From a virus (Duplodnaviria; Heunggongvirae; Uroviricota; Caudoviricetes), in IMG/VR virus record IMGVR_UViG_3300028379_000400, positions 1 through 64,000 of that record: a stretch of 64,000 nt of DNA; one strand, given 5' to 3'. Shown here piece after piece: positions 38,513 to 58,620 of this stretch (within the stretch, counting starts at the first letter, position 1; every line of letters begins with the position of its first letter). Position numbers and translations under genes: made by a program. Under the pieces are notes generated by a model. It worked only from the letters and a program-made list of their open reading frames with translations. It was not told the origin of the DNA and ran no database searches.

Positions 38513-39072
38513 TGCGCGATCTCTTCGGCGAGTCCGACCGCCACGAGGCAGGCGGCAAGGTCAAGACCCGCTTGCTGCCCGGCGTCAAGGGAGACGCCAA
38601 GTTTGCTGGGAAACGGGATGAATACCGACCCGTTTTAAGGCGATGGCGCGGCGAAAAATTCCCTGATGAATATGCAGTTTTCATCGGGATGAACCCGTCA
38701 ACGGCCGAGGCCGCCATCAACGATCCGACGATCACCCGGGAATGGTCATTCACGGAGCGAGAGGGGCTCGCCGGCTACGTCAAATGCAACGTCGCCGACT
38801 ATCGCGCCACCTATCCGTCCGATCTACTCGCGCCGGGCCTGGTATTGCGTTCCGAGGAGAACTTGAAGACAATCTTGGCGCTCGCCGAGGGTGCCAAACT
38901 AGTTGTCGCCTGCTGGGGTTCGGTCAACAAGGCGTTGCGGCCGCTGGCCGATGAAACCGCGGCCGCTCTCCGCGACGCCGGCGTTCAGCTCAAATGCTTC
39001 GGCCTGACAGCTAACGGCTCGCCCAAGCATCCCGTCAGGCTGGCCGGTGTGACGCCGCTCATTTCGTTCTAG
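38512..39072 (+). CDS. DUF1643 family protein
   Basis: FIGMNPSTAEAAINDPTI, CNVADYRATYPSDL, WGS...GSPKHP pattern. Confidence 0.55.
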   Translation: MRDLFGESDRHEAGGKVKTRLLPGVKGDAKFAGKRDEYRPVLRRWRGEKFPDEYAVFIGMNPSTAEAAINDPTITREWSFTEREGLAGYVKCNVADYRATYPSDLLAPGLVLRSEENLKTILALAEGAKLVVACWGSVNKALRPLADETAAALRDAGVQLKCFGLTANGSPKHPVRLAGVTPLISF

Positions 39073-39671
39073 TCCGCGCTCCGCTCCGGCCGCCTCGATG
39101 TCGTCACCGCCTCGGTGACCTCCTGCGCCAGATCGACGTTCTCGACCGACTTGGCGAACAGGGCGAGCACTATACGAACAGGGTGAGGGACGTCCTCGAC
39201 TCCGTCGATCCATTTCAGCACCCGATCTTGGCTAGTCCCGTAGAGATACGCGAAGAAGGTAGGCGTGATGCCGGCGGCGCTGAGCGCCATCGCGAACTCC
39301 GGACCGGTCATCTTCTGGTAGCGTTCCGGCGCGCGTTTGTTGGCGCCAGCCTTTATGCGGGGACCGTTGAGCGCCGAGATCATGGCCCGGCCGGCGTGGT
39401 ATTCCGCCAGCTCTTCGGTCTCGAATACCGACGGAGAACCGTCCCGCTTCGTCAGGGTTTGCGGCACCATACCTGGCGCCGAGAAGACGGCAACAAAACT
39501 GCCACGCCCATCAGGCATCGCTTTGGCGATGAAGACGTTCGACGGGAACCGCTCCGGCATAAAAACCTCGGTATAGGGACGAAAGCGGTTATCGTCGGCG
39601 AGCAGGGCCTCGGTCAAGCGGTAGCTCCTTTCAGTTGGAAATACGGGATTAGGCGTGGCCGCGCAGAACAC
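39069..39671 (-). CDS. hypothetical protein, possible HTH; convergent with rightward operon
   Basis: GTG start per track; alternative ATG at 39560 with GAGG RBS. Confidence 0.35.
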   Translation of the reverse strand: MFCAATPNPVFPTERSYRLTEALLADDNRFRPYTEVFMPERFPSNVFIAKAMPDGRGSFVAVFSAPGMVPQTLTKRDGSPSVFETEELAEYHAGRAMISALNGPRIKAGANKRAPERYQKMTGPEFAMALSAAGITPTFFAYLYGTSQDRVLKWIDGVEDVPHPVRIVLALFAKSVENVDLAQEVTEAVTTSRRPERSAD

Positions 39672-40119
39672 GGCGCGTCAGCGGCGATCGGCCGTGGCGG
39701 CCATGCAGGATCTTGGCGTCGGCACGCGCGGCGGCGAACAGATCGCGGCCTCGAGCCTTGTGCTTGGCGAGCGCTTCGCCGTGAAATGCCTCATCGGGCT
39801 CCATTTCGGCGATGATGACGCGAAGCATTCTGGCTTCCTGTGAGGTCAGTAGGCCGAACTCGGTGGTGATCTTGAGCTTAATGAAGGCAGTCTTCAGCTC
39901 GTCGAGGCCGAGGCCGCGCATGTAGCCGGCCGACGCGAAGTCGCGGAAGCCCTCCAGATATTCGGCGCGGAAGTAAACCTCCATCGCCGCGCCATGCGCC
40001 GGATCAGGGTGGCCCTGTTCCTTCAGCCTGTTGTGGATGGCGCCGAGGGCGAGTCCTTCGCGAATGTGCCAGTAAATCTCGGCGATCTTGTCGCGCAACC
40101 TCACAGCGTTTTCCTCCAC
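39649..40119 (-). CDS. hypothetical protein (156 aa)
   Basis: ORF. Confidence 0.4.
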   Translation of the reverse strand: MEENAVRLRDKIAEIYWHIREGLALGAIHNRLKEQGHPDPAHGAAMEVYFRAEYLEGFRDFASAGYMRGLGLDELKTAFIKLKITTEFGLLTSQEARMLRVIIAEMEPDEAFHGEALAKHKARGRDLFAAARADAKILHGRHGRSPLTRRVLRGHA

Positions 40120-40985
40120 GGGAATCCGTTCGGGATGCCAGCCTTCCGCAGCTCAGCCTTGCCGAGGCCGGTTGCTTTCCAGTGATCGGGGCCGACCTGA
40201 GTGATCCATCCGCGCTCCTCCAAGATTGTGCCAAGCGCGGCGAACCTCGGGTGGGCGGCCGGGAGGACTGAGCCGGTCGATTGCACGCCCCCGAGATCGA
40301 TGCCGGCGAGCAGCGACATCAAGTCATCGTGCTGCGCAGTCGCAGTGCTGTTGACGAGGGCAATGAAGTCCGCCATTTCGTCCCGCCGTTTGCCCGGCAT
40401 GGTCGACGCGATCTGGCTGCCGTCCGAAGCAAGCACGATGCCATCGGCGTCCATCGTCAAGGGCAGCATGTCATAGGTGACACGCGCCTCCGGTTGGGCG
40501 ATCGCCTCGTCTTCCAGTGCCGAAAGTGCATCGTTCGGGTCGGTCCAGGTAATTAGCTCCTGAATCCGGCAGGCGAGAAGCCATGCGCGCGCTGTTCGCT
40601 CAAGAACCTTATGCGCTTCCATCGCGCCGCCGATAAAGAAGGTGCCGGGCGGCACATTGTCTGGCGGAGGGCCGTCCTCGCTCACCACCGGGGCGTACAT
40701 CTTGAAATCGTCCGGCGCGATAAAGCCGGTCAACTCGGTGAGCAGCGCCTTGGCAAGATCGTTGGTCTGATTGACGATCTCGAGGTCGGTGCGGGGACGA
40801 TAGCTGTTCAGCGCGTTCTGAACGAGCGGCGCGAAGCTGTAGTGGCCGTCGCAGATCGGCTCGTTGGCCTCGGTGATCGGGCAGAGGGCGATGACGGCAT
40901 CGGTTTCGCTGTCAACGATGATATGCATGCCGGGGTGTTTCGCCATAGCGCGTTTGGTGGTGTCCACCAGGTAGCGGTAGTTCAT
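40101..40985 (-). CDS. hypothetical protein (294 aa)
   Basis: preceded by conserved hairpin + GGAGTCCGG leader. Confidence 0.45.
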   Translation of the reverse strand: MNYRYLVDTTKRAMAKHPGMHIIVDSETDAVIALCPITEANEPICDGHYSFAPLVQNALNSYRPRTDLEIVNQTNDLAKALLTELTGFIAPDDFKMYAPVVSEDGPPPDNVPPGTFFIGGAMEAHKVLERTARAWLLACRIQELITWTDPNDALSALEDEAIAQPEARVTYDMLPLTMDADGIVLASDGSQIASTMPGKRRDEMADFIALVNSTATAQHDDLMSLLAGIDLGGVQSTGSVLPAAHPRFAALGTILEERGWITQVGPDHWKATGLGKAELRKAGIPNGFPWRKTL

Positions 40986-40993
40986 CCGGACTC

Positions 40994-41419
40994 CTATTCT
41001 CGCCCACGTTCGGGCAGGTTGTGAATGACATGGGCGGCGCCGTATGCCGCCAGTCCAGCCATGCCTAAGAGCATTGCGTCGGTCATGTCTGGCACGTAGT
41101 CGCGGCGATATCCGTCGCTCCTGGGTGCATTGGCGCGATATCCCGCCATGGCCTTGGCCCTGGCTCTCGCCTGGGCGAATGTCGAGGCAGTGCCGCTGAT
41201 CCGGTCGCCACTGCGGTAGCCGCTACCGTTGAAAGCCCACCAGCGATAGCTGTGACGGGAAAGCCGATGGACACCACCCCACGCCGCCACGCGCTTGTCC
41301 GGCCGGTGCGATAGGCGCCAGCTATATCGTGCGGGCCTGTCCGGTTGACCAGCGACGAACTCGACAGCGGTGCCAACCGACAGGAATGGCGCGGTGAGCG
41401 CTCTTTTGCTCCTCGGCAT
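40994..41419 (-). CDS. basic hypothetical protein with C-terminal hydrophobic helix
   Basis: ORF from MPRSKRALTAP; 3' end overlaps a leader-motif hairpin. Confidence 0.3.
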   Translation of the reverse strand: MPRSKRALTAPFLSVGTAVEFVAGQPDRPARYSWRLSHRPDKRVAAWGGVHRLSRHSYRWWAFNGSGYRSGDRISGTASTFAQARARAKAMAGYRANAPRSDGYRRDYVPDMTDAMLLGMAGLAAYGAAHVIHNLPERGRE

Positions 41420-41736
41420 CAGCGCTTGCTCCGTTCCCGGACGATGTCGGCGACCATGCGAGCGTGCCGGCGAGCGCGAGCCCATGGCGAGGTGTAGATT
41501 TTGAACCAAATCCAGAACCCGACGCCGATCGCGATACCGAAGACCAAGCACCAGAAGAAGAAGGTGACGATCAGCATCAAGGGCCACGCTAGAACCCAGG
41601 CGTAGAGCCACGCGCTATCCCAGTGGAAGACGGCGCCGGTGCCCCCGAGGATGGCGTAGAAGAGCGAGCCAAGGCCAAGGTAGAAGGCCAGCCAGGTGAG
41701 GCCGACGCGGCGCACCACGATCTTGCCCTCAACCAT
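41419..41736 (-). CDS. polytopic small membrane protein
   Basis: three hydrophobic segments. Confidence 0.45.
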   Translation of the reverse strand: MVEGKIVVRRVGLTWLAFYLGLGSLFYAILGGTGAVFHWDSAWLYAWVLAWPLMLIVTFFFWCLVFGIAIGVGFWIWFKIYTSPWARARRHARMVADIVRERSKR

Positions 41737-42061
41737 GCTCGGACTCCTTCATGAGCTTCTCGACCAAGGCTTCGAGATCGGCGACCTTGAGGCTCAGCGC
41801 GAAGATGCGGTCGCGAGCAGCGCAGACGACGGCCTCGTGGGCGCTGTCGATGCGCATCAGCATGCGAACCTGGTTGCCGAGATCGAAATCGTTCTGCTCA
41901 TTGAAGATCGACGGCGCGCGAGCGGCAGTATCGCGGACATCGGTCATCCGCTTCTGGACCTCCGGCGCCGACATATCGGTCGGCCCGCAGGTTTCGGTGT
42001 AGACCATGCCCATACGGGCGAGCAGAGCTTTGTGGGCTGCCAGTTCGGCGGCGTTCATCAT
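41729..42061 (-). CDS. hypothetical protein (110 aa)
   Basis: preceded by leader motif GAGCAACTGTGCTC...GGAGTCCCTGATG. Confidence 0.45.
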   Translation of the reverse strand: MMNAAELAAHKALLARMGMVYTETCGPTDMSAPEVQKRMTDVRDTAARAPSIFNEQNDFDLGNQVRMLMRIDSAHEAVVCAARDRIFALSLKVADLEALVEKLMKESEHG

Positions 42062-43316: not shown

Positions 43317-43586
43317 TCAGATGGTGCGGAAGACGTCGGCGAGCAGCTCGTCGATCTCGTCAGCGGTCAATGGATCGTGGAGACCAGAGTCGGTCGCCTG
43401 GTCGCTGCATTCGTCCATGAAGGCGAAGCCCTTGGCGACGATCACGTCACCACGCAGGATGCCCTGCCAGAGCCGCAGAGCGGCAATGGTGGTCGCTTCC
43501 TGCCGGTTGTTCATCGGCAAGGTTTTGCCCAAGGCGGCGCCGAAGAAGCGCGGCGTCAAGCGACCGATATTGGGAAGGCTCGGCAT
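43317..43586 (-). CDS. hypothetical protein (89 aa)
   Basis: GGAGGA RBS. Confidence 0.4.
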   Translation of the reverse strand: MPSLPNIGRLTPRFFGAALGKTLPMNNRQEATTIAALRLWQGILRGDVIVAKGFAFMDECSDQATDSGLHDPLTADEIDELLADVFRTI

Positions 43587-43790
43587 CTATTTGTCCTCCT
43601 TCGGCGATACCGCGCGCAGCAGATCGGCCATGTTCTTGGCGCCCAGCTTGCGCATGATCCGCGCGCGGTGAACCTCGACGGTGCGAGGGGATAGGCCCAG
43701 CAAGCGGGCGGTTTGCTTGTTGGCGTGCCCGGCAAGGATCAGCGCCAGCACCTCGCGCTCGCGCGGAGTCAATTCCTTCTGGCGTGTCAC
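43587..43790 (-). CDS. LuxR/GerE-type HTH regulator (standalone, 67 aa)
   Basis: [45 protein letters not shown]. Confidence 0.65.
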
Positions 43791-44418: not shown

Positions 44419-44607
44419 TTAGACGGGAAGCGGGTGTCGGCGCTCCCATTCGGCGAAGGCTTCGTCCAGCAAGCGCTTCTCGTTTCTGATGACGAAATCC
44501 GGCATGCCAGCCTCAGTTAGTTCGAGCAGCCGGACTAGGCGGTTCGAGCGGTTGACGATGCGAAGTCGAATGCCAGCGTCAGGCACCTCGGAAAGATCAT
44601 GCGCCAT
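44419..44607 (-). CDS. small hypothetical protein (62 aa)
   Basis: coupled ORF. Confidence 0.35.
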   Translation of the reverse strand: MAHDLSEVPDAGIRLRIVNRSNRLVRLLELTEAGMPDFVIRNEKRLLDEAFAEWERRHPLPV

Positions 44608-45058
44608 CGGCTCGATCCTCGCCGTTGACTAACGCCAATGCCCGCTGGTGCAATTCCGAACCTGCTGCCGCCCGGCGTTCGACAAGGGCGTGCGCAATCA
44701 GATGGTCAGCTAGATTGGTCTCGGAATCCTCGTCGGCAAAGATCACGAGCTGACCATCGCCGCATTCGTTGATGTTCCAGCCTTCGGCAAAGGCAGCGTC
44801 GGCATCGGCAACGGACCAGCCGGGGAAGACTTCGATGCTGGCAGAGACCTTATCGCCATCGGCGACAAGATAGGCCACGTCGACTGGCCCTAATTCGCGG
44901 TGGTCTGACAAGAGGTCATCGACCGAATCCCAGACGACGACACCTGACAGGTGGCCGCCAGATTTGACTTCGAGATATGTCGCAATGTCGGATTTCTCTG
45001 CCTCGGGGAAATTGTCAGTGTCCACGACGAAAGCGGCGACGCACAGTTTCCTGCCCAT
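44597..45058 (-). CDS. acidic hypothetical protein (153 aa)
   Basis: GGAGGG RBS. Confidence 0.4.
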   Translation of the reverse strand: MGRKLCVAAFVVDTDNFPEAEKSDIATYLEVKSGGHLSGVVVWDSVDDLLSDHRELGPVDVAYLVADGDKVSASIEVFPGWSVADADAAFAEGWNINECGDGQLVIFADEDSETNLADHLIAHALVERRAAAGSELHQRALALVNGEDRADGA

Positions 45059-45061
45059 CGA

Positions 45062-45619
45062 TCAGCCCTCCAACTTCATGGCGAGGCAGAGGCCGCCCCA
45101 ATCGTCGGCTCTCCCCTTCCAGATATTGTCGTAACCGTCGCCCGTATCATTTAGGCGGAACTCGCTGGCGGCTTCATCCCAAGCCCAGCCCGCACATTCG
45201 GCAATGGACTGCCAGTTGATTGCTTCGGCGATGGCGTCGCGGGCCTTCTCAACGGAATACCTCTCCCCGAACATGCTGTATGAGCCGGTGGCGGCCAGGT
45301 GAGCATTGGCTTCGGTGTTCTCAAGGTCGGCGATGTCCTTCAGCGCCGCCAGCATGGCAGGCGCGGCGCGGTACGCAGTGGTGTCTGCTGATATCGGCTC
45401 GCCCTCGTGGTCGGGCTCGCTTTCGTCCTCGCAATAGGCGCGGTCGACCTCGGCAGTGGTGAAGCCGACGACGCCGTCGCCATCTTCGTCCACGGGCCAG
45501 CTCGCTTTGTCGCTGTCAGCCTTGGCCCTCTCAAAGGCCTCGGCATAGCTGTCGGCCTCGACGACGATAGTGCCCTTGATCCACGCGATTTGGGCCAGCG
45601 TGACGCTGTAGGTCTTCAT
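45062..45619 (-). CDS. highly acidic hypothetical protein (185 aa), DNA-mimic candidate
   Basis: Asp/Glu-rich composition (DEDGDGVVGFTTAEVDRAYCEDESEPDHEGEP). Confidence 0.45.
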   Translation of the reverse strand: MKTYSVTLAQIAWIKGTIVVEADSYAEAFERAKADSDKASWPVDEDGDGVVGFTTAEVDRAYCEDESEPDHEGEPISADTTAYRAAPAMLAALKDIADLENTEANAHLAATGSYSMFGERYSVEKARDAIAEAINWQSIAECAGWAWDEAASEFRLNDTGDGYDNIWKGRADDWGGLCLAMKLEG

Positions 45620-45622: not shown

Positions 45623-46309
45623 TCAACCCCCCAAGATTTCGGTGACGCGTTTGTCGATCTTGCCGATGGCCTCGTTGACCATCGCGTCGGCGGCCGAACC
45701 GTCAAGCGTCTTGCGCAACTCGGCGCGCCGCGCGGTAAGCGACGCGACCTCGACCTTGTCTGCCTCGTCGCCAGCCTCCATCCACGCCTTGAGGTGGTTG
45801 GCGACAACCTCAGAGACGGAGAGGCCAGGCATGCCTTCGCCGTTGGCGATACCCACGCTGGCCACCAAGGCGCGAATGTCGGCAAGCGGATCGTCATTGG
45901 CCAGCAGCTTGCGGAGCGTCGGCAGGTCGATTGTCGAGTTGTTGCCGTCGCTCGACGCCTCCACGCGACCCGTTGCCGGCGTGTAACCAGCGCTGCCAGG
46001 GCCATAGTCGCCGCCCGATCCCCACCCGAAGTGATATGCGATCTTGTGTTCCTCGCAAACAGCCTCGACCTCGCTGATGTTGCCATAGTTGACCTCTTCC
46101 GCGTTGAAGCTGATGCTGGATGCGACGGCCTCTCCGCCGACCGCCTCTGCGATTGCCGCCTTGATGCCGTCGGCGTCGCCAGCGTGGAAATCCGATCCGG
46201 CGTCCGGCTGCATCCAGCGCCCGGCCATCGCCTCGCAGAACTCTTCAAGAGCCTCCACGGTCTCGATATGGCCGGATAGTACGAAACTGACGTTGGTGCG
46301 GTCACCCAT
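45623..46309 (-). CDS. hypothetical protein (228 aa)
   Basis: divergent leader motif upstream. Confidence 0.45.
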   Translation of the reverse strand: MGDRTNVSFVLSGHIETVEALEEFCEAMAGRWMQPDAGSDFHAGDADGIKAAIAEAVGGEAVASSISFNAEEVNYGNISEVEAVCEEHKIAYHFGWGSGGDYGPGSAGYTPATGRVEASSDGNNSTIDLPTLRKLLANDDPLADIRALVASVGIANGEGMPGLSVSEVVANHLKAWMEAGDEADKVEVASLTARRAELRKTLDGSAADAMVNEAIGKIDKRVTEILGG

Positions 46310-46381: not shown

Positions 46382-47644
46382 CTAGACCCGCATGGGCATA
46401 AGGACGGCCAGCCAGCCTTCGCGGCCTTCGCCGGTCACGACAGTCGGCGAACCAGCGTCATTGAACAGCATGGTCACTTCGTCGGAACGGGCCTCGGTAA
46501 CCAGGTCGGTGAGATAGCGGGCATTGAAGCCGATCTCGAACGACTCCGGCATTTGCTCGCCCGGGACGATTGCGAGGGGTACGGCCGACGATCCCATGTC
46601 GGGGTTGTTGCAGATCAGCGTGAGCTTGCCGCCCTCGAACGAAAGTTTGACCGCCTTGCCGCCGCGTTCCGATGCCACCAGCCCGGCCGCCTTGATCGCG
46701 GCGAGAGCGTCGGCGGCCTTGAACGTGACCGCCTTGTCATTGTTTTTCGGCGTGACACGCTCGTAATCGGGGAATGTTCCATCGATCATTTTGGACGTGA
46801 CTGTCACGCCATCCCAATGCAGCCGCATGAAGCGCTCGTGGACCTCGATTTCGACGGTCTCCGGCCGCGCCTTGCCCTTCATGAGCTTCACCAGAAGGGC
46901 GACCGTCTTTTTGGGGATGATGATGCCCGGCATGCCGATTGCGCCGTCTGGCGCCGTGATTTCGCTTCTCGCCATGCGATGGCCGTCAGTGGCCGTGCAG
47001 CGAAGCTCCGGCCGGTTGCGACCCGACGGCGTGACGACGTGCATATAGACGCCATTGAGATAGTACCGGGTCTCCTCATTTGAGACCGCGAACTCGACGG
47101 CGTCGAGCGAGTCAAAAAGCTCGATGCCAGAGAGGCTGAAGCGGTGCGTGAACTCGCCGGGCTTCAGTGCCGGGAACCCTTCTGACGGCAGAGCCGCCAT
47201 CTGGTAAGTGGCCGTGGCGAAATCGACATCGACCGCGCCGTCGAACGTGATGATGGTTTCCGTCGCGTCGGGGACGTTCTCGCCCTTCTCGATATCGAAT
47301 TTCCAACGCGTGACGCGTTCCACGGCCTTGGACGGTGGCATGGTGAAGGCGACGTATTCGGCCTTGGGCGCGCCCTTCAGCAATTGCTTCAGCATCAGCG
47401 CTGGCACGGTCACGTCGAACCGCTCATCGGCCGGCGCGGGCACGGCAACGTCGATCACGATATCGAGGTCGGTGCTCGTGACGAAAAGCATGTTGCCGTC
47501 GCCGCGAAGGCGGACGTTGGCAAGAATGGGGTAGGTGTTGCGACGCTCAACGATCTCCTCCGCGATCTCGACGGCGCGAGTCAGGGCGACGCGGTCGGCG
47601 ACGGCGGAAGCAAGGGCAGCGGAAGCAAGGGCAATGGCGGTCAT
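46382..47644 (-). CDS. dnaN: second DNA polymerase III beta sliding-clamp homologue
   Basis: RRNTYPILANVRL, three-domain clamp pattern, C-terminal LMPMR; leader motif upstream. Confidence 0.8.
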   Translation of the reverse strand: MTAIALASAALASAVADRVALTRAVEIAEEIVERRNTYPILANVRLRGDGNMLFVTSTDLDIVIDVAVPAPADERFDVTVPALMLKQLLKGAPKAEYVAFTMPPSKAVERVTRWKFDIEKGENVPDATETIITFDGAVDVDFATATYQMAALPSEGFPALKPGEFTHRFSLSGIELFDSLDAVEFAVSNEETRYYLNGVYMHVVTPSGRNRPELRCTATDGHRMARSEITAPDGAIGMPGIIIPKKTVALLVKLMKGKARPETVEIEVHERFMRLHWDGVTVTSKMIDGTFPDYERVTPKNNDKAVTFKAADALAAIKAAGLVASERGGKAVKLSFEGGKLTLICNNPDMGSSAVPLAIVPGEQMPESFEIGFNARYLTDLVTEARSDEVTMLFNDAGSPTVVTGEGREGWLAVLMPMRV

Positions 47645-47700: not shown

Positions 47701-47868
47701 TCAGGCGGCGGTACTAACCGCGCCGACGACAGATGACGTAAGCAACGGCACAAGCGCGCCGGGGAAGCGGATGGTGGTGACGCCGCCAAGCATGAAGCCG
47801 GACAGAAAGGCGGCAACGCACGCCACAAGTGCGCACGTCACGGCGGTATCGGGGATGAAGCGGTGCAT
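47701..47868 (-). CDS. 55-aa membrane peptide
   Basis: found by reading minus strand (MHRFIPDTAVTCALVACVAAFLSGFMLGG...); preceded by leader motif; not in track. Confidence 0.3.
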   Translation of the reverse strand: MHRFIPDTAVTCALVACVAAFLSGFMLGGVTTIRFPGALVPLLTSSVVGAVSTAA

Positions 47869-48081: not shown

Positions 48082-48100
48082 TGTGTAATTTAATTGCACA
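48082..48100. promoter_or_regulatory. 19-bp palindromic operator TGTGTAATTTAATTGCACA
   Basis: near-perfect inverted repeat at head of leftward operon. Confidence 0.5.
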
Positions 48101-48114: not shown

Positions 48115-48501
48115 TCAAGCGCGCAGCGCCGTTTCGATCAGGTCGAAATTCCCGTCGTCACGCAGATCGGCGTCCGCACGACCAGCGCGCCGCTGCGCCT
48201 TGTCGGCAAGCTCTTCGCGGATAGATCGCAGATCGGTCACGCTATCAGCGCCCGCCAGCGCCGCGTCGATGGCAACCTTGTTGACCGCGAACAGCAGCGC
48301 CAGCGAGCGCGGCAAGCCCATGTCGGTCTCGCCTTGATCGAAGCGCGGCCACGTTCTTTGATCCTGCCAGACCAGCGCGCCGGGCGGCGTGAATTGATAG
48401 GCGAAGCGACGGCCGCCGAAGACGGAGTCGGTGACGATCACGCGCCACGCGCGGCCGTTGATCGTCATGGGCTCGCTGGCCCAATGAACCGGGCCGGTCA
48501 C
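48115..48501 (-). CDS. hypothetical protein (128 aa)
   Basis: ORF. Confidence 0.4.
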   Translation of the reverse strand: MTGPVHWASEPMTINGRAWRVIVTDSVFGGRRFAYQFTPPGALVWQDQRTWPRFDQGETDMGLPRSLALLFAVNKVAIDAALAGADSVTDLRSIREELADKAQRRAGRADADLRDDGNFDLIETALRA

Positions 48502-48874
48502 GACGGTGCACCTTCGGGCCAGATGCGCTCATAGAGCGCGCCAAGCATCCCCCGCGCGCTCGCCTCGGGGAGCGTGGCCAATACCGCCGACGGCTTCAGT
48601 TCGCGAAGATTGACCGGCTTACGCAGCTCGCCCATGAAGGCGACCGGGTCGGCGATATCGTGGCACGCGTTGAGACAAGCGACGATGCGTTCCGCCCATT
48701 GAGCCGGCGATGGCTCTGAGGCGTCGGGGTCGGTCAAATTCACCATGTAGCCGGTGAGGGTGACGACGGCCAATTCCTGCCCGCCCGGTAGTCGGATGGC
48801 AGGCGTTCCGTCGGGCACTCGGGATTGGTCGCGAACGATATCAGCGACGGCTTGATAGACCTTGGGGTAGTTCA
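48498..48874 (-). CDS. hypothetical protein (125 aa)
   Basis: start MNYPKV placed after GGAGTCCCCG leader (track start is an upstream TTG). Confidence 0.4.
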
Positions 48875-48917
48875 TCGGGGACTCCATGAATGCCCACAAT
48901 CGGGCGAGGGCAGGCGG

Positions 48918-50528: not shown

Positions 50529-50783
50529 TTAGGCTATGGCTTCAAGGTAGGTTTCAGGGTGGCAATCCGGCCCGTCTTGTGCGGACCAATCCCAAATCTG
50601 GATGGCGTTCTGCCATTCGTCCAGTTCTGGAAAGTGCTTGTCGAGCGTCACCCAATAGGAACCCTCTTCATCGATTTCGCGAAGCGTTCCCGTCAGGCCG
50701 ATATCGAAAAAGCCGGTCGGGAAATTGTCCACGGCTTTGACGAGTTGGACGCGGGTCTTGGGTTGCAGCATTGGCCTAACCAT
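50529..50783 (-). CDS. hypothetical protein
   Basis: coupled ORF, start uncertain. Confidence 0.3.
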   Translation of the reverse strand: MVRPMLQPKTRVQLVKAVDNFPTGFFDIGLTGTLREIDEEGSYWVTLDKHFPELDEWQNAIQIWDWSAQDGPDCHPETYLEAIA

Positions 50784-51117
50784 CCGCGTTCGCGATGGTG
50801 GCGCGCACCGCTGCCAGACGGGCAGCGGCGGCGGCATAGCTGATGGCCATGCGCGGCCCGTCCTTTCGCAGGCGGTCCACGTAGCCCATCAGGTCGCCTT
50901 CAATTGCCTTGAGCGCCGACAGCGCCGCCGAAGACCCTGCAACTTGAACGCCGTCGTCGGTGCGATAGACGGAGACTGAAACCGTATCATCGTCGTTCTG
51001 CCGGACGGATATTAATCCGCCCTTGCCGTTCGGCGCCGTGAACTCGGCGATGCGCTCGTGCTGCTTGTCGGCGTAGGTATCGGCGACGCAATGAGGGTTG
51101 ATCGACGGACGGCGCAT
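50776..51117 (-). CDS. hypothetical protein (113 aa)
   Basis: TGATG coupling at 51117. Confidence 0.35.
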   Translation of the reverse strand: MRRPSINPHCVADTYADKQHERIAEFTAPNGKGGLISVRQNDDDTVSVSVYRTDDGVQVAGSSAALSALKAIEGDLMGYVDRLRKDGPRMAISYAAAAARLAAVRATIANADG

Positions 51118-51400: not shown

Positions 51401-51688
51401 TCAAGCGACGTTGACGGCCAGATATCTGGAATAGCCAGACGTTGCCGCCTTGAAGCCAGCGGGCGAGCGCTGGCCCGGCGCAAGATCAACAACACATGCC
51501 AGCGGCTTGCCGGTTGCCTTGGCCTCGGCTGCATAGGCGTCACGGGCGGCGATGGCCTCGGCAGTGTTGCGGACTTCCATGTCGCGCGGGGCGAACTCGT
51601 CAGGCTTGCCGGTAAGATCGAAGACGACAGAAAAGCGCCCGCCGCCGCTGGCCTTGGCAGGGTATGAATGAAGGCGGATTTTGACCAT
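51401..51688 (-). CDS. hypothetical protein (95 aa)
   Basis: start MVKIRLHSYP after leader motif. Confidence 0.4.
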   Translation of the reverse strand: MVKIRLHSYPAKASGGGRFSVVFDLTGKPDEFAPRDMEVRNTAEAIAARDAYAAEAKATGKPLACVVDLAPGQRSPAGFKAATSGYSRYLAVNVA

Positions 51689-51731: not shown

Positions 51732-51914
51732 TCAGTAGCCGCCCGCCATAGAGCGCAGCAGCGGACCGGCCTTCGCGCGGTATTGCGCCTTGGCTTCGAG
51801 CGCAGCGGTCTCGCGAATCTTGCGGGACAGTTCTGCGCGTTCGAACTTGTCGGTGGTGCCGCCTAGCTGTGTGCGAAGGGCTTTCAGGACGGCGGCGGTT
51901 GGCAGCTTTGCCAT
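51732..51914 (-). CDS. small hypothetical protein (60 aa)
   Basis: start MAKLPTAAV after leader motif. Confidence 0.35.
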   Translation of the reverse strand: MAKLPTAAVLKALRTQLGGTTDKFERAELSRKIRETAALEAKAQYRAKAGPLLRSMAGGY

Positions 51915-51989: not shown

Positions 51990-52008
51990 TGTGCAATAAA
52001 CTTGCACA
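51990..52008. promoter_or_regulatory. 19-bp palindromic operator TGTGCAATAAACTTGCACA
   Basis: perfect 7-bp arms; abuts stop of upstream operon. Confidence 0.5.
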
Positions 52009-52374
52009 CTATTGCTGTTTCTCGAATAGGTGTGCGGCGCCTGAATTGACGATCAACGCGGCGCCGCGCTCATCAGCAATGGCGTCGTTTATCCAGATAT
52101 CGCGATAGTCGGTCGCCGGCTCATAAACTCCGTCTATCGTCCAATAGCCGAGGTTAAGAATATCCTCGGTGCCGGTCTGCGCCGGAAGGCCATGGGACGC
52201 GAGGAACGAATTGAACTCGGCAATGTCGATCCGGGCGATTTTTAGGTAGCCCTGATTCGGGTCGGGATCGGCTTCATCGAAATCGATGCCGGGGGCATAG
52301 TTCAGCACTTCGCCAGTGGCCAGATCGCAGGTCATCTCTCCCCAATTGCCTGTCACGAGAATTGTATCGGCCAT
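52009..52374 (-). CDS. hypothetical protein (121 aa)
   Basis: variant leader GCGCGATCATGCGC...GGAGTTAC. Confidence 0.4.
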   Translation of the reverse strand: MADTILVTGNWGEMTCDLATGEVLNYAPGIDFDEADPDPNQGYLKIARIDIAEFNSFLASHGLPAQTGTEDILNLGYWTIDGVYEPATDYRDIWINDAIADERGAALIVNSGAAHLFEKQQ

Positions 52375-52465: not shown

Positions 52466-53302
52466 CTAAAGGCTGGCGATGAACGCCAAGGCCTTGACGG
52501 CTAGCGCGTCACCTTTTGCCGCTTGTGCCTCGACATGGATTCTGGCGTCGTCATCGCTGGCAAAAATCGGCTCGCCGTCGCCTTCGGGGCAAAACTCGTG
52601 CATGTCGTCAACGCGCTCGATACCGCCAGCCATGAACCAGCCCTGCACGCCTGCCGCATGCATGTCATCAGCCGTCCAACCACTTTCGCGGGCGGCTTTG
52701 CGCTCGGCCTGGCATGCATGCTCTGCCGTGCTGGCGTAGCGGTAACCGTCGGATGCGGTGGCGTCGGTTTTGCGCCATTCGCTTTGCTCGGTTTCCCAAT
52801 ACCAGCCCGCCGCCTTGGCCGCCGCGACATAGATCGGATTTTCGGGCGCGGGATCTTGCTCGTCGTCGCCTTCGTCGTCTTCGGCTACCTCTTCCGCATT
52901 CATCGCCAGCGCGCTCCGGAACATGGCCTTGGGATCGCCGCCTTGCCGCCGGATCAAATGGGCCATGTTGCAAAGTAGGTCGCCGATAGCGTCTTCGTCA
53001 TCGGTCCGGCAAACCCCTTGAAAGGCGCTTACGGCGGCTTGCGCAAATTCGGCCCGGTCGGCATTGGTGGGCGTCATCATGCCCAGCGAATGCAGCGCGT
53101 GCGGCACGGTTTCCATGTCGGGGACAACGGCAGCATCGGTCACCATAAAATCGGTGTCATTGGACAGGGCATAAAGGCCGTCGGCAACAACCTGCCACGC
53201 CGCCCGGCTAGCGATTGGGCAGGCGTTGTCAAGGTTGCGCTCGACAAACGCAGCCACATCAAACGCGGCGCTGCTATCGATCAAGGCGAAGGTCTTTTTC
53301 AT
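52466..53302 (-). CDS. acidic hypothetical protein (278 aa)
   Basis: leader motif; DDEGDDEQDPAPENP stretch. Confidence 0.45.
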   Translation of the reverse strand: MKKTFALIDSSAAFDVAAFVERNLDNACPIASRAAWQVVADGLYALSNDTDFMVTDAAVVPDMETVPHALHSLGMMTPTNADRAEFAQAAVSAFQGVCRTDDEDAIGDLLCNMAHLIRRQGGDPKAMFRSALAMNAEEVAEDDEGDDEQDPAPENPIYVAAAKAAGWYWETEQSEWRKTDATASDGYRYASTAEHACQAERKAARESGWTADDMHAAGVQGWFMAGGIERVDDMHEFCPEGDGEPIFASDDDARIHVEAQAAKGDALAVKALAFIASL

Positions 53303-53433: not shown

Positions 53434-54852
53434 CTAGAGCCGCCCGATATAGACCGGGTCACCAAAGGGAACGGCGGCGGCGAGGCTGGCGAATTTTCGG
53501 CTATCGCCATGCGTTGCCCAAAGGACCGGGCAGGCAGGCTCCTCCCCAAAGTCACTAACCTCTAGGTCGGTTAGGTAGACAACGGCGCTGGCGTCCGGGG
53601 CGTTGGCCTCGATCCACTCAAAGGTATTGCGGAAGGCGGTGCCGCCGCCGCCCGCTAGCGTCAATTCTACGGTATCGCCAACCGTGAACTCGGCGACGCT
53701 GCAAACCCGCGTGTCTGCCATTAGGACGGTAAGCCGGGCAAACTTGCCGGACTCCATCGCGCCGACAATTTCGGCGGCGGCGTTGTTGACCATGTCGGCG
53801 GTTATCGAACCGGACGTGTCGACGGCAAAGACGACATGCGACAAGCCGTCGACAACAGCGCCGGGCAAATACACGCCAGCGTGCACAAAGCGGCGATTGG
53901 GGCGGGCAAACGAATAGTCGAATGACACGCGGGAATCGATCCAGTTCGCCAGCAAGTCGCGCCAATCGGCAACGGGCGTTGCAAGGTCCGTCACAAGCTC
54001 TTGCAGATAGCCCGGAACGCTTCCGGCTTGCGCCTTGGCGACGTTGACGGCTTGGCGGGTCCAAACCTGCCATTGGTCGGCGCTCGCCTCGCTTTCCACC
54101 TGCCCGCCTTCCGGTGCGATAACCCCGCCCATGCCGTGCGCGTCGCGGCTATCGTTCCCCGGCGCTGGCGCGCCTTCCGGCTGGCCTTCCGCGCCGCCGC
54201 CTTGTGACTGCCCGTCCGGCTGGCCAGCGCCTTCAGCGCCCGCGCTATCGCCGCCGCCTTCCGCGTCACCCTCGCCCGCTTCGCTATCTGCGCCAGCGTC
54301 TCCCGGTTCGGACGCGTCGCCCTCGCCAGCGTCGGCGGTCTCGCCGTCGCCCGCCTCGCTTTCGCCTTGTCCGGATTCGCCCTGGCTGGCGTCCGCCTCG
54401 CCGTCGCCCTCTTCGGGTTGCTCTTGCGGTTTGGTCTCGGCGGCAGTCAACAGGGCGTAAACCTCTTCCGCGCCCATGCCACGAAATGCCGGGTCCAAGA
54501 GCATACCGCGCGGCATGGTGAACCCGGCCGCGATCAGGTCGGGATTGATGCAATAATCAGCCGCCCGGTTGAAGCGCTCAAGGTCACGGTTGCCAATGCG
54601 GGCATGGTGACGATAGGCGCAATGCGAGACCTCGTGCGCGACTAGGAAAATGCATTCCGCCTCGCTTAGGCTTTCGATAAAGGCGGGCGCGTAGAAAAGG
54701 GACGCGCCGTCGGTCGCCATTGTGGCCGTCTTGTCCGGCCGTGCCGCCACGGCAAGGTGTAGGGCGAGGCAACCATAAAACGGTTGCGACGTGACTAGCC
54801 GGGTCCGCGCCAAGGTCACGCGGTCGGCGGCGTTGAGGCCTTGCCAGTTCAC
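53434..54852 (-). CDS. VWA-domain protein with N-terminal HExxH metallopeptidase-like domain (DUF2201-type)
   Basis: HEVSHCAYRHH; MIDAS VVFAVDTSGSI; acidic Gly/Glu/Asp linker; GTG start overlapping MoxR stop. Confidence 0.7.
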   Translation of the reverse strand: MNWQGLNAADRVTLARTRLVTSQPFYGCLALHLAVAARPDKTATMATDGASLFYAPAFIESLSEAECIFLVAHEVSHCAYRHHARIGNRDLERFNRAADYCINPDLIAAGFTMPRGMLLDPAFRGMGAEEVYALLTAAETKPQEQPEEGDGEADASQGESGQGESEAGDGETADAGEGDASEPGDAGADSEAGEGDAEGGGDSAGAEGAGQPDGQSQGGGAEGQPEGAPAPGNDSRDAHGMGGVIAPEGGQVESEASADQWQVWTRQAVNVAKAQAGSVPGYLQELVTDLATPVADWRDLLANWIDSRVSFDYSFARPNRRFVHAGVYLPGAVVDGLSHVVFAVDTSGSITADMVNNAAAEIVGAMESGKFARLTVLMADTRVCSVAEFTVGDTVELTLAGGGGTAFRNTFEWIEANAPDASAVVYLTDLEVSDFGEEPACPVLWATHGDSRKFASLAAAVPFGDPVYIGRL

Positions 54853-55853
54853 AGCGTCACCGCCTGATTACGGTGCGCCCAGTCCACATAAGCGCCGGTC
54901 TCGCAAAGCGCCTTGTCCCGCTTCACCGCGTCAACGGCGGTTACAATCTCGAACTCTTTCGGCAGGCGGCGGGCATAGGCCAGCACGTTGTCAAACGTCG
55001 TCACGCTGGCTTTGCGGGCGAGGGCGGTTGATACCGCGTAAAGCGCCGACGGGTTTGACGGTACGGGCGCGCCGTGCGGGTCCGCTATGATTGCCTCTAG
55101 CCGGGGAAGCTCTTCCGCGATTTCCGCAAAGGCTTCAAATTCGGCGGCGACGGTATCGCCGACTAGGCCAGCTATCAGGGCATGCCGGACGGCAAGCGGC
55201 TGGCCAACAAACTTGGCGGCGCGTTCCCATGCCCGTGGCGACGGGAAGGCTAGTTCATCGGCTGGCGCTGGCGTGGCGCGGTCCATCGTTTCGACGTGTA
55301 GCAGCGCCGGGCGGAATTTGAGAAACCCGGCTATCAGCGGATGAACGCCAGCCGTTGCCGCCCATGCCTGCCATGCCTCGGGATCAACCGCGACGTTCAG
55401 GTGTAGGAATCGATTGGCCAGCGCGCCCGAAATCTTGTTTGTGCCGGTCCGGTCGGTTTTGCCGTTGCCCGCCGCAATGACGCGCACGCTATCGGGGAGG
55501 GCATGCTCGCCAATGCGCCGATCTAGGACGATTTGCAGCGCCGCCGCCATGACGGCCGGACTCGCCCGGTCCATTTCGTCAAAAAACAGGATTGTTTCGC
55601 GCGACGGGTCGGACGGCCAAATTGCCGGTTTCAGCCAAACCGTTTCCCCGTTCACGGCGGCGGGCAAGCCGCGCAAGTCGACGGGGTCAAACATGCTCAA
55701 CCGGATATCGGCCAGCGTCGCGCCACGCCGCTTGGCAAGGGCCTTGATAACGTCCGATTTGCCTACGCCCGGCGCGCCCCAAACAAAGGGCGGGACGTTG
55801 GCGTCTAGGGCGGCGTTGACAGCCTCAACAGCGGCGGAAAGCTTCAGTTTCAT
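54849..55853 (-). CDS. MoxR-like AAA+ ATPase
   Basis: Walker A VWGAPGVGKS, Walker B ILFFDEMDRA; leader motif upstream. Confidence 0.75.
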   Translation of the reverse strand: MKLKLSAAVEAVNAALDANVPPFVWGAPGVGKSDVIKALAKRRGATLADIRLSMFDPVDLRGLPAAVNGETVWLKPAIWPSDPSRETILFFDEMDRASPAVMAAALQIVLDRRIGEHALPDSVRVIAAGNGKTDRTGTNKISGALANRFLHLNVAVDPEAWQAWAATAGVHPLIAGFLKFRPALLHVETMDRATPAPADELAFPSPRAWERAAKFVGQPLAVRHALIAGLVGDTVAAEFEAFAEIAEELPRLEAIIADPHGAPVPSNPSALYAVSTALARKASVTTFDNVLAYARRLPKEFEIVTAVDAVKRDKALCETGAYVDWAHRNQAVTL

Positions 55854-55919
55854 AGTGGGACTCCACATTGCGCACTAGCGCGCGTCACGCCGCCGGGCGA
55901 ACCGGCGGCGACACTCGTG

Positions 55920-56914: not shown

Positions 56915-57220
56915 CTAGAACGCGACAGGCACGACGGCGGGCAGGGAGGGCGCGCAATAGGCGTCAACGGCTGGCAACGGCTGGCCGGTCTCGCTTGTGG
57001 CCACGGTCGGGAACGGCGCTTCCCAAATCGCATGCATTGCCGCGCGGCAAGCGTCGGCGGGCATAGGGTCGGACATGCGCAAGGCATGCCCGCCCTTGGC
57101 GTTGAGTATCAGGGTAAGGCGCAACAGCGTCGGCGCGGCGGAAACGCCCGCCAGCGCGCCGCCAAGTGTCACGGCGAGGCCGATAGCGGCAACGGCAAGG
57201 GTTGAAGTTGTCCGGGTCAT
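56915..57220 (-). CDS. small exported/membrane protein
   Basis: MTRTTSTLAVAAIGLAVTLGGALAGVSA signal-like N-terminus. Confidence 0.35.
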   Translation of the reverse strand: MTRTTSTLAVAAIGLAVTLGGALAGVSAAPTLLRLTLILNAKGGHALRMSDPMPADACRAAMHAIWEAPFPTVATSETGQPLPAVDAYCAPSLPAVVPVAF

Positions 57221-57224
57221 TTGC

Positions 57225-57373
57225 TGACTCCGAAAATGGCGCACGTGGCCAACGTGACGACGGCCAGTCCGCCAAAGAACGTGGAAGCGACAAGCCAGTC
57301 GGACATGGCCAGATAGGCGTTGATTGCGTTTTCGAGCGCCACCAAGGGGCGCAGAATCTTGTTCATGGCGCGC
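57225..57373 (-). CDS. 49-aa membrane peptide
   Basis: MNKILRPLVALENAINAYLAMSDWLVASTFFGGLAVVTLATCAIFGVSK; read manually, not in track. Confidence 0.25.
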
Positions 57374-57374
57374 C

Positions 57375-57572
57375 TCAGCAATTTTCAAGTTGTTCGGCGA
57401 AGGCGAGCGCTTCGGCCGCTTGCTTGGCGAATTGCGCGGACATGCCCGCGTCGCACAGTTCGGCGGACCATTCGTTCCACTTGGCGGCGCTGCTACGGCA
57501 AATGTTGGCGAGCGTCCAACGGGTTTCCTCCGGGATTAGCTCTAGGGCAGCGGCGGGCAGTTCTTTCTGCAT
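57375..57572 (-). CDS. small hypothetical protein (65 aa)
   Basis: start MQKELPAAAL after leader motif. Confidence 0.35.
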   Translation of the reverse strand: MQKELPAAALELIPEETRWTLANICRSSAAKWNEWSAELCDAGMSAQFAKQAAEALAFAEQLENC

Positions 57573-57658
57573 TTGGGACTCCTCAATGCGCACAATCGCG
57601 CGGGGTTAGGCGTCTAGAGCCTAGTAGGACGCGCCACGCGGGCGCGCCCGGCTAGAGG

Positions 57659-57829
57659 CTAGGCGAAGTAACGGGCTATCGCCGCCAGCGCGTCCGCCTC
57701 ACAATCGAACAAGCCCCATGACTTGAGCCGTTGCGTTCCATGGCTGACATGCCAGCGACGCGCGAGGCGATCAAACCCGGTCACGAGACTGCCGGGCGCA
57801 TAGAGCTTGAGGTTGAGCAGGGTTTCCAT
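57659..57829 (-). CDS. small hypothetical protein (57 aa)
   Basis: METLLNL start with GAGGG RBS. Confidence 0.25.
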   Translation of the reverse strand: METLLNLKLYAPGSLVTGFDRLARRWHVSHGTQRLKSWGLFDCEADALAAIARYFA

Positions 57830-57839
57830 TGACGCGCCC

Positions 57840-58013
57840 TCAATAGCCAAGCCACGCCAGCACGGCGCTGGCGCGGTACGTGGCACGGTCGCCGCACTCG
57901 GCAAGAAACAGGGCGATTGATTCGGCGTCGTCAACGCCATGGCGTGCAAGCTCTTGCAGGGCGCGGGCTTTGGTGATCGTCACGCCACTTGCGGACTCGG
58001 AATAGGTGCACAT
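57840..58013 (-). CDS. small hypothetical protein (57 aa)
   Basis: MCTYSESASGV... preceded by leader GGAGTCCCGTGAATG; read manually. Confidence 0.25.
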   Translation of the reverse strand: MCTYSESASGVTITKARALQELARHGVDDAESIALFLAECGDRATYRASAVLAWLGY

Positions 58014-58078
58014 TCACGGGACTCCAATCGGTCGCGCACAATCGCGCATTGCGCACATGCTCATAGTTCGCCGCATTT

Positions 58079-58097
58079 GGCAAGCGCTTGTGCAAAG
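58079..58097. promoter_or_regulatory. 19-bp palindromic operator TGTGCAAAGATATTGCACA
   Basis: perfect 7-bp arms at head of leftward operon. Confidence 0.5.
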
Positions 58098-58099
58098 AT

Positions 58100-58620
58100 A
58101 TTGCACATTCCACGGACGCCAAAGGGAACGCGCGCGCATGTGAGGGCAGCACACTGGCCAGCCCTGCCACGTGGCTAGGTCGGACGCCATGCCTACGCCA
58201 CGCCAGCGCTGGCCAGCGTCATGCCGCACCGATAGCTGGCAACACGTCGCGCCTCGCTTCGCATGTCATGCCAGCGTGTCCAATTGATACCTGGCTACGG
58301 TTCACGCTCGCCGCTTGCCTCGCCGAGTCGCGCCGCTTGCCGCCTCGCCCATGACTGGCCAGCGCTGGCCGCGCCTCGCCCCTCCGGCCTCGCCGATCAT
58401 GCCGCGCGCCCGTCACTGACAGGATGTCACGATTTGACCCGGCGAGGCATGGCCACGCGTTCGGAGTGCCGTGCCCGCCTCGCCGTCGTCAACCCAAGCC
58501 GCGCGCAGCGTCCGAGACCCCTAGGGGGGTCTAAATCTCTAGGCGCCGGCGGAAGGCCCTGACCGCGGGGGCCCCAAGCCCGAAAAAAATTTGGTATGCA
58601 CAGTTTTTGATCCAGCCAAA
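58100..58620. repeat. GC-rich non-coding region with short direct repeats (GCCTCGCC, TCATGCC) and GCCAGCGCTGGC palindromes
   Basis: no credible ORF; multiple repeat copies seen by eye. Confidence 0.4.

Follow-up and report, generated by a model that had tools for sequence, protein, structure and literature searches.

The 64-kilobase (kb) window analysed here, which is the whole stretch at positions 1 to 64,000 of the IMG/VR virus record IMGVR_UViG_3300028379_000400, holds a tightly packed block in which every credible gene between 58013 and 39069 lies on the minus strand. Seventeen cistrons of this block are preceded by one and the same leader, a short RNA hairpin followed by an extended Shine-Dalgarno (SD) sequence. 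The block may represent a repressor-controlled, probably early accessory region of mixed cargo, whose cistrons form a post-transcriptional regulon through the shared hairpin and extended SD, and we regard the chances for and against this reading as even. A trans-acting factor, early timing and a role in host takeover or anti-defence beyond that of the methyltransferase encoded in the block are the parts of it that we infer.

The shared leader of the block

The leader of the 17 cistrons consists, in order, of a C-rich tract, a hairpin, 5-9 nucleotides (nt), GGAGTCCC or a one-base variant of it, 2-5 nt and the ATG. The hairpin follows the consensus GCNC-GATTGT-GNGC, with a stem of 5 base pairs (bp) and a loop of 4 nt in 14 nt, and is positioned 5-9 nt 5' of the SD and ~16-23 nt from the start codon. 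All 17 leaders are on the minus strand inside the block. A covariance model (R1), built from the 17 leader sites themselves, found exactly these 17 sites over the 64 kb, all in the block and at 31-48 bits, and reached at most 15.1 bits elsewhere. The sites and their R1 scores are as follows.

58012..58062, minus strand, leader 1, hairpin GCGC-GATTGT-GCGC and GGAGTCCC, 34.2 bits
57570..57616, minus strand, leader 2, 47.1 bits
56826..56877, minus strand, leader 3, 31.2 bits
55851..55898, minus strand, leader 4, 33.2 bits
53300..53347, minus strand, leader 5, 36.4 bits
52373..52422, minus strand, leader 6, 33.2 bits
51913..51961, minus strand, leader 7, 45.4 bits
51685..51732, minus strand, leader 8, 46.1 bits
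51318..51366, minus strand, leader 9, 42.2 bits
50482..50530, minus strand, leader 10, 41.9 bits
48872..48920, minus strand, leader 11, 46.9 bits
47868..47916, minus strand, leader 12, 40.9 bits
47641..47689, minus strand, leader 13, 47.9 bits
44373..44419, minus strand, leader 14, 42.0 bits
43276..43323, minus strand, leader 15, 42.5 bits
42058..42107, minus strand, leader 16, 38.1 bits
40981..41030, minus strand, leader 17, 36.3 bits

The original prediction assigned the leader to every independently translated cistron, and of the 18 cistrons with a real intergenic gap before them 17 do have it, the exception being gene 45623-46309, which lacks the hairpin and has only the SD GGAGAACCCC upstream. 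The remaining block genes overlap or abut their upstream neighbour. In many intergenic gaps a further, variable GC-rich hairpin follows the stop codon of the preceding gene.

The leader hairpin is an RNA structure. Its stem is paired in all 85 cells of the 17 sites, one stem pair varies (CG in 6, GC in 6 and UA in 5), and 15 sites close with G-U, the other 2 with A-U. Because G-U pairs would be C-A mismatches on the opposite strand, the structure is strand-specific, which points to RNA. Folds of minimum free energy in the native context contain the leader stem in 14 of the 17 cases, and a joint alignment of 19 sites from three phage contigs is 97.9% paired, with compensatory changes at four of the five pairs and a covariation score of 0.785, compared to at most 0.13 when the 3' partners were slid. 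The top of the hairpin, including the C20-G27 pair, an R-U pair and the first loop A (A22, U26, G27), shows sequence conservation, in contrast to a freely varying lower stem, suggesting specific recognition. Furthermore, a TCCC 3' of GGAG is conserved in the leaders, for which we know of no evident pairing role with the 3' end of 16S rRNA. Scanning the window with Rfam gave no family for the leader, and only transfer-messenger RNA (tmRNA) models matched.

Similar hairpin-plus-SD leaders stand before cistrons of two related metagenomic phage contigs, each with its own SD flank (GGAGA in L003). One of them, L003, was found via a 61%-identical homologue of a 185-amino acid (aa) acidic protein of the block (45062-45619), and the other, L006, via a homologue of module B, one of four parts of a 278-aa acidic protein (52466-53302). 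The clamp (49%), the 185-aa protein (61%) and the terminal 200-aa gene (52%) are all that L003 shares with the window, and the 200-aa gene is the last block gene in both. In L006, the shared parts are the clamp, a methyltransferase domain directly after the clamp, module B and the C-terminus of the terminal gene. The block is thus a conserved frame with a cargo that turns over quickly.

Further observations touch on the leader and on these relatives. In a metagenomic element seen in L006, L007 and L008, the module B gene is immediately followed by a DUF932 (PF06067) gene, and DUF5983, a clamp homologue, a gene with a methyltransferase domain and a HerA-like ATPase belong to this block of small genes as well; similar hairpins precede several cistrons, the clamp included. 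A lone leader-like site lies in the first leftward block of the window (6828-6859, minus strand), with the same extended SD, GGAGTCCCAAATG, and a different hairpin, CCGG-CTTCGG-CCGG, for which R1 gives only 10.8 bits.

Two other explanations of the leader were considered. A sigma-70 promoter was rejected, since neither a conserved -35 nor a promoter-like match is present. Within the extended SD GGAGTCC lies GAGTC, a form of GANTC, which is the target of CcrM-type methyltransferases in alphaproteobacteria; the leaders supply about one third of the block's 52 GANTC sites. A CcrM site as the cause of SD conservation was not adopted, as GANTC is mildly depleted (148 sites against 220 expected) and evenly spread, and the L003 leaders are without GANTC.

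Operator-like palindromes and transcription units

The palindrome TGTGCAA-N5-TTGCACA occurs at six sites in the window when up to 3 mismatches are allowed, against 1.7 expected, a number that was reached in 0 of 100 shuffles. The palindromic sites and the gene of a small helix-turn-helix (HTH) protein next to them are listed here.

58089..58107, exact palindrome TGTGCAAAGATATTGCACA at the block head, 26 nt upstream of the first leader hairpin
51990..52008, exact palindrome TGTGCAATAAACTTGCACA inside the block, followed by a T-run
48082..48100, third palindrome, with 1 mismatch, in the 246-nt gap before gene 47701-47868
59005..59023, weaker palindrome-like site upstream of the Cro-like gene
19478..19540, two related palindromes heading the first leftward replication/recombination operon
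58699..58890, minus strand, Cro-like HTH gene of 63 aa just upstream of the block, with the ATG at 58890 read from sequence

Operators heading the block had been proposed, and palindromes do lie at its head and inside it, although the site at 51990 may instead be a terminator. The Cro-like protein is a candidate regulator of the palindromic sites; the Pfam family HTH_3 matched the longer open reading frame (ORF) 58699-59127 with E=6.9e-4, below the curated cutoff. The block would then be divided into about three transcription units, each headed by an operator and regulated together with the recombination/replication operon, and because operator-like sites are common to the block and this operon, its expression would be early.

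One of the palindromes at 19478-19540 is followed by eight T and looks like an intrinsic terminator, and the motif TTGCACATTTT recurs at 19522, 51990 and 59005. About 400 nt between the Cro-like gene and the block (58130-58540, minus strand) are non-coding and contain several GGCGAGGC and CTGGCCAG repeats as well as the perfect palindrome GACCCCCCTAGGGGTC; this stretch could represent origin iterons, a binding array or a non-coding RNA.

A proposed mode of control

In the regulon proposed here, leftward transcription would proceed as about three units, each preceded by TGTGCAA-N5-TTGCACA, and almost every uncoupled cistron displays a C-rich tract, the hairpin top C-R-A-N-N-N-U-G, the extended SD GGAGUCCC, 2-5 nt and AUG. 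Most likely, a trans-acting RNA-binding factor would recognise the hairpin top beside the ribosome-binding site and set translation or mRNA stability for all 17 cistrons together, while, less likely, the hairpin would be a passive 5' stabiliser or processing mark.

Several points weigh against the regulon. Exact-leader scans of IMG/VR (8 loci) and JGI metagenomes (39 loci) found no clustered leaders; the loci had at most one model match each, which is chance level, and revealed no relatives, and the conservation of the leader beyond the window is that seen in two diverged contigs. With its 5 bp the hairpin is weak, and its role might be limited to SD accessibility or to protection of a 5' end. 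Regarding transcription, no sigma-70-type promoter was found at the block head, the sites 51990 and 19522, with their T-runs, could be terminators instead, and the probable early timing is deduced from the operator-like sites. Finally, the clamp and the pair of MoxR and VWA proteins also fit a role in DNA metabolism rather than host takeover.

The leader could also work passively, without a trans factor, as a 5' stabiliser, processing mark or SD insulator in a block that would be an ordinary polycistronic early region, which we consider unlikely though not negligible. At its distance from the start codon the structure need not block 30S binding, and the variable GC-rich hairpins after upstream stops are compatible with processing into stable monocistronic RNAs. 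However, the loop and closing-pair positions are conserved across three phages with the lower stem free to vary, the TCCC is conserved without, to our knowledge, an evident role in 16S pairing, and the leader is absent from the phage's other operons.

Gene content of the block

About 40 leftward genes had been expected in the block; the orientation and the packing are as described, while the count is about 35, with 33 firm genes and two doubtful ones (42098-42304 and 40994-41416). Gene starts placed inside leader hairpins were corrected before gene lists were compared, and the list agrees with an independent gene call on the identical Logan contig (L001). The 33 firm genes are given below, with isoelectric points (pI) and transmembrane (TM) segments where they stand out.

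57840..58013, minus strand, first block gene, 57 aa, unknown
57659..57829, minus strand, 56 aa, 10 nt past the preceding stop and probably coupled
57375..57572, minus strand, 65 aa, acidic, pI 4.43
57217..57366, minus strand, 49-aa peptide, C-terminal hydrophobic stretch read as a TM segment (gene call on L001)
56915..57220, minus strand, 101 aa, N-terminal signal- or TM-like segment
55920..56828, minus strand, 302-aa protein upstream of MoxR, no family match and no PDB match
54849..55853, minus strand, MoxR-type AAA ATPase, 334 aa (Pfam AAA_3, AAA_5 and AAA)
53434..54852, minus strand, DUF2201_N metallopeptidase (HEVSH) and VWA-like DUF2201 with an acidic linker (Pfam 3.5e-50 and 1e-23)
52466..53302, minus strand, 278-aa acidic four-module protein, pI 4.30
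52009..52374, minus strand, 121 aa, acidic, pI 4.05
51732..51914, minus strand, 60 aa, basic
51401..51688, minus strand, 95 aa
51117..51320, minus strand, 67 aa, very basic, pI 11.65
50776..51117, minus strand, 113 aa, start overlapping the upstream stop
50529..50771, minus strand, 80 aa, unknown, acidic by sequence with 14 D+E against 5 K+R (gene call on L001)
48918..50483, minus strand, DUF4942 and gamma-class N6-adenine methyltransferase, 521 aa (Pfam)
48498..48875, minus strand, 125 aa
48115..48501, minus strand, 128 aa, start overlapping the upstream stop
47701..47868, minus strand, 55-aa single-TM peptide
46382..47644, minus strand, second beta sliding clamp, 420 aa (Pfam, NCBIfam)
45623..46309, minus strand, 228 aa, acidic, pI 4.43, without hairpin leader
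45062..45619, minus strand, 185 aa, acidic, pI 4.16
44597..45058, minus strand, 153 aa, acidic, pI 4.21
44419..44607, minus strand, 62 aa
43794..44375, minus strand, 193 aa, acidic, pI 4.76
43587..43790, minus strand, 67-aa LuxR/GerE HTH protein (Pfam GerE, 1.9e-20)
43317..43586, minus strand, 89 aa
42304..43278, minus strand, 324 aa, acidic, pI 4.27
41729..42061, minus strand, 110 aa
41419..41736, minus strand, 105 aa, three predicted TM segments
40101..40985, minus strand, 294 aa, pI 4.8
39649..40119, minus strand, 156 aa
39069..39671, minus strand, terminal gene of the block, 200 aa, C-terminal half HTH-like by eye, without family match

The genes are mostly small, as had been noticed, with a median protein length of 126 aa in the block and 222-232 aa in the other two blocks, so that block proteins are about half as long as those elsewhere in the window. 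The domain assignments made from the translations (DUF4942, DnaN, MoxR, DUF2201/VWA with HExxH and LuxR HTH) were all borne out by Pfam and NCBIfam, and the tiny membrane peptides correspond to four small membrane or secreted peptides (57217-57366, 56915-57220, 47701-47868 and 41419-41736). The 67-aa basic protein at 51117-51320 is, by inference only, a candidate RNA binder.

Acidic proteins as mosaics of small modules

Acidic proteins are enriched in the block, where a pI below 4.5 is found in 9 of 30 proteins, compared to 2 of 46 for the two remaining blocks (Fisher p=0.005). The four proteins singled out as extremely acidic are indeed acidic (pI 4.16, 4.21, 4.27 and 4.30), and the low pI of the VWA protein stems from its acidic linker. 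The suggested likeness to the DNA mimic Ocr did not extend to charge density: Ocr, whose sequence was checked against PDB 1S7Z, contains 29% D+E and has a net charge of -0.24 per residue, against 17-21% and -0.09 to -0.13 in the block. BLASTP of Ocr (PDB 1S7Z) against the block gave nothing below E=0.36. Among the acidic proteins, no Pfam match at E<=0.01 and no NCBIfam or PADLOC match was found, and PHROGs gave none apart from two families of unknown function. Four block proteins, three of them acidic, had no match among PDB sequences.

The 278-aa protein consists of four modules, A (residues 1-67), B (76-150), C (154-199) and D (205-278). A word-indexed homologue search returned only the protein itself, and tblastn gave no match in the phage and plasmid collections, while an exhaustive HMMER search found each module elsewhere as a stand-alone protein of 70-100 aa. 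The family of module B has 477 members, all unnamed or hypothetical and none with a Pfam domain, with invariant R, D, H and E. Based on the 477-member alignment, AlphaFold2 predicted module B as a three-helix bundle of 65 residues with a predicted local distance difference test (pLDDT) score of 93-98 and module C as a helix with a beta-hairpin, B and C being the sole confident parts of the 278-aa model. Structure prediction had been proposed earlier as a check for DNA-mimic surfaces; module B had no significant match in the PDB or BFVD, and the AlphaFold2 model of the 185-aa protein was unusable (4 sequences, pLDDT 49.7). Only two homologues of the 185-aa protein were found by the word-indexed search, and the protein is paralogous to the N-terminal part (120 residues) of the 324-aa protein (hhalign 96.7%). 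Weak matches also connect module C to the 185-aa protein, and module D to the C-terminus of the 153-aa protein. The acidic proteins thus amount to small non-enzymatic modules in shuffled combinations. They may act on host targets.

In addition, a 245-aa database protein (P0081) has an N-terminal part that reads like the N-terminal domain of DnaN, fused to module B. Together with the clamp as anchor of the block, this fusion is a hint that module B and the sliding clamp are functionally linked, and it could also be an artefact of assembly or gene calling.

The original prediction took the block as an anti-defence and host-takeover island. The orphan methyltransferase, the operator-like sites and the variable cargo agree with this, while the acidic proteins match no anti-defence family. 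They did not turn out to be ordinary enzymes or structural proteins, and nothing in their modular make-up speaks for DNA mimicry, which their composition would suggest. A dedicated island, in which acidic DNA mimics would block restriction or DNA-sensing defences and would be delivered along with the orphan methyltransferase, seems to us fairly improbable. Favouring it are the enrichment of acidic proteins, the small non-enzymatic modules of those that were modelled, the single orientation with uniform initiation signals and operator-like sites, a cargo that varies between relatives as expected for arms-race loci, and the relatives of DUF4942 among plasmid leading-region genes (PMC11541004). 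All of this is evidence from composition and context, and beta-clamps and MoxR/VWA pairs are common in phages without a link to anti-defence.

Methyltransferase, clamp and MoxR/VWA pair

The protein encoded at 48918-50483 matches DUF4942 with 148.9 bits in Pfam (cutoff 25; 1.8e-43) and carries a C-terminal methyltransferase domain with the motifs ILEPSAGTGNL (AdoMet-binding motif I) and VVMNPPF (catalytic motif IV). It also has weak matches to methyltransferase models, and its PADLOC matches are to methyltransferase models only. No nuclease partner was found by Pfam and PHROG in the flanking genes or by PADLOC in ten block proteins, and lack of a match to nuclease models is not proof of absence. 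The proposed link of DUF4942 to plasmids was confirmed, with homologues on at least 5000 plasmid records, of which 4556 are conjugative. The closest full-length homologues are on alphaproteobacterial plasmids (34-41% identity), as seen in the Phaeobacter plasmid pP54_d, where the homologue lies among ssb, ParB and a zincin-like metallopeptidase that reads as ArdC-type, near a relaxase. This orphan methyltransferase is the one credible anti-defence function of the block and would protect phage DNA by modification. The block as a prophage defence island was rejected, as PADLOC found no defence system in it.

The second clamp matches PF00712, PF02767 and PF02768 above their cutoffs as well as TIGR00663 (187.2, cutoff 137.65), and is 38% identical to the clamp at 13312-14424 (minus strand), with an insertion of ~31 aa in domain I at residues ~106-136. 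Scanning genome contigs with it returned only host dnaN genes. The MoxR ATPase is matched by AAA_3 (28.4, cutoff 27), AAA_5 (28.1, cutoff 22) and AAA (28.5, above cutoff), and its stop is overlapped by the start of the DUF2201/VWA gene. Homologues of the DUF2201 protein occur in 679 phage records, many of them jumbo phages, and a scan of viral contigs with the VWA protein gave only one distant locus. In Pseudomonas phage PA5oct (L140), the VWA homologue EST35_0340 lies ~3 kb downstream of an ATPase annotated ESI-MS/MS, and the MoxR/VWA pair may thus be a widespread phage module unrelated to defence.

These enzymes could instead make the block an accessory module of replication and DNA metabolism, in which the clamp, methyltransferase and MoxR/VWA would remodel or supplement the replisome, and the acidic proteins would be adaptors binding clamp or polymerase, or regulators of host replication proteins that mimic single-stranded DNA or DNA. 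We regard this as improbable. In each of the three related contigs the block has a clamp homologue as its conserved anchor, in L006 a few genes separate module B from a clamp, P0081 joins the N-terminal clamp domain to module B, and the operator-like sites are common to the block and the recombination/replication operon. However, other blocks of the window already encode a complete set of replication and recombination proteins, a clamp included, the P0081 fusion is a single case and a possible artefact, and most of the cargo is not conserved.

Phage identity and surroundings of the block

The G+C content is 59-66% throughout the window, and that of the block is uniform with the remainder. Megablast of the block against 50,697 phage records gave no match, and the window has no close relative there. 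Outside the block, the window contains a first leftward block (1 to ~20.4 kb) with a Dda-like helicase, a sliding clamp and RecT-like and exonuclease VIII-like proteins, a CI-like repressor (20420-21085, HTH_3 and Peptidase_S24), and a rightward block (~21.7-39.1 kb) with a 779-aa DNA methyltransferase, a helicase and DnaB. YbcO and a PyocinActivator-type gene lie beyond the left end, on an ENA contig extending past the window. The nearest relatives of the second clamp in the phage collection are from Rhizobium phages (~36% identity), and host DnaN of Rhodobacterales is 37-39% identical to it. The longest contig in the clusters holding two of the block proteins (P0001 and P0004) is 195,839 bp. 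We conclude that the source is a large uncultivated alphaproteobacterial phage or prophage, and its host group is probably Rhodobacterales. The rightward operon is opened by a T5orf172/MUG113 domain protein (22178-22792, plus strand).

Beyond the block head, a full-length alphaproteobacterial permuted two-piece tmRNA gene is located at 59120-59498 (plus strand; Rfam RF01849, 110 bits, E=4e-29; also RF04321). It was missed by ARAGORN and had no blastn match in the phage collection. Its position is immediately upstream of the Cro-like gene, and phage-type genes flank it on either side. The tmRNA gene is either phage-borne or the mark of a prophage attachment site, and the long ORF overlapping it (59146-60210, minus strand) is probably spurious. 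Near the tmRNA, an RNA ligase family protein is encoded at 59768-60601 (plus strand; PF09414, 5.7e-13), and a 594-aa phrog_1735 protein at 62115-63899 (plus strand). In Rhizobium phage RHph_X66, a 50%-identical phrog_1735 homologue stands directly after RtcB, with RNA ligase 2 ~6 kb upstream. The genes at 59768-63899 (plus strand) possibly form an RNA-repair module. RNA-repair modules can counter tRNA-cleaving defences, so for an anti-defence function this one may be the window's better candidate.

Comparison with known systems

The closest known analogue of the leader is the start-associated motifs SAS and ESAS, described in 2011 in cluster K mycobacteriophages (PMC3203893), whose function is still unknown (PMC12699233). 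In both cases a conserved asymmetric motif combines an SD core with bases unable to pair with 16S rRNA (GGGATAGGAGCCC there, GGAGTCCC here), stands a few nt before mostly ATG starts, in one orientation and at non-structural genes only, often has an inverted repeat upstream and fronts unrelated gene families. However, the leader does not fit the consensus GGGATAGGAGCCC within 2 mismatches, having GGAGTCCC after variable bases, and the host phylum differs. In ESAS the inverted repeats are imperfect, 17 bp long and separated by a spacer of 4-13 bp, and RNA pairing found little support (PMC3203893), whereas the hairpin here has a 5-bp stem and a 4-nt loop, is 100% paired and shows compensatory changes and G-U pairs. 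SAS and ESAS are also spread over half a genome, unlike the leaders, which are confined to one 17-kb block with three apparent transcription units. The leader is thus not a member of the SAS/ESAS family. A bolder proposal would take the leaders as the sites of a phage-encoded RNA-binding switch that acts on translation or mRNA stability over the whole block, kept across alphaproteobacterial phage lineages as an equivalent of SAS/ESAS and controlling new acidic takeover or anti-defence families; this is conceivable, and we hold it tentatively, leaning against it.

Short hairpins of this kind are also known as protein-binding sites. The coat-protein operators of MS2 and PP7 and the boxB of lambda N have a short stem and conserved apical nucleotides near a translation start, and the size and conservation pattern of the leader hairpin resemble what is typical of such protein-binding RNA hairpins, a likeness that may serve as a lead only. 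These systems have one or two sites per genome, whereas 17 are present in one block here. The early operon of T7 is punctuated by intergenic RNA structures that are RNase III sites, and a 5-bp stem is too short for RNase III. The block resembles T7 Ocr (gene 0.3) and ArdA in its small acidic proteins from probably early phage genes, and differs in having no sequence similarity to them, no fold match for the one acidic module modelled with confidence and searched, half the charge density of Ocr and mosaics of small modules.

The leading regions of conjugative plasmids, where anti-defence islands have been described (Samuel et al. 2024, PMC11541004), share with the block a uniform orientation, many small uncharacterised genes, an orphan methyltransferase and dedicated expression signals. 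In contrast, the block is in a phage, and no oriT or relaxase context, SSB, known anti-restriction, anti-CRISPR or SOS-inhibitor gene was seen in it. General library scans recognised the methyltransferase as the only leading-region gene class in the block, and relaxase and transfer families had no match among the scanned block and context proteins. By description, the leader hairpins are also set apart from Frpo promoters, which are single-strand DNA with -35 and -10 elements, as the former are RNA-type stems of 14 nt beside an SD without either element. Capture of a leading-region segment from a conjugative plasmid or an integrative and conjugative element is very improbable, for although the closest full-length DUF4942 homologues are on alphaproteobacterial plasmids in a neighbourhood of ssb, ParB and a zincin metallopeptidase, the methyltransferase alone is shared with the pP54_d region, no ssb, relaxase or known anti-restriction gene was seen in the block, its GC is uniform with the window, and the leader and palindromes tie it to phage-specific regulation and to related phage contigs.

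Significance

The leader of this block provides a proteobacterial counterpart to the start-associated motifs, in which the upstream repeat is clearly an RNA hairpin with a conserved top, and this conserved RNA hairpin makes the idea of a trans-acting factor testable. Moreover, the block marks unannotated families of small proteins, for example module B, as candidates for host takeover or anti-defence, and the shared leader is a natural co-regulation signal that can be used for finding more such families. Even if the anti-defence idea is wrong, the block would remain a clear case of block-specific translational punctuation in a phage genome.

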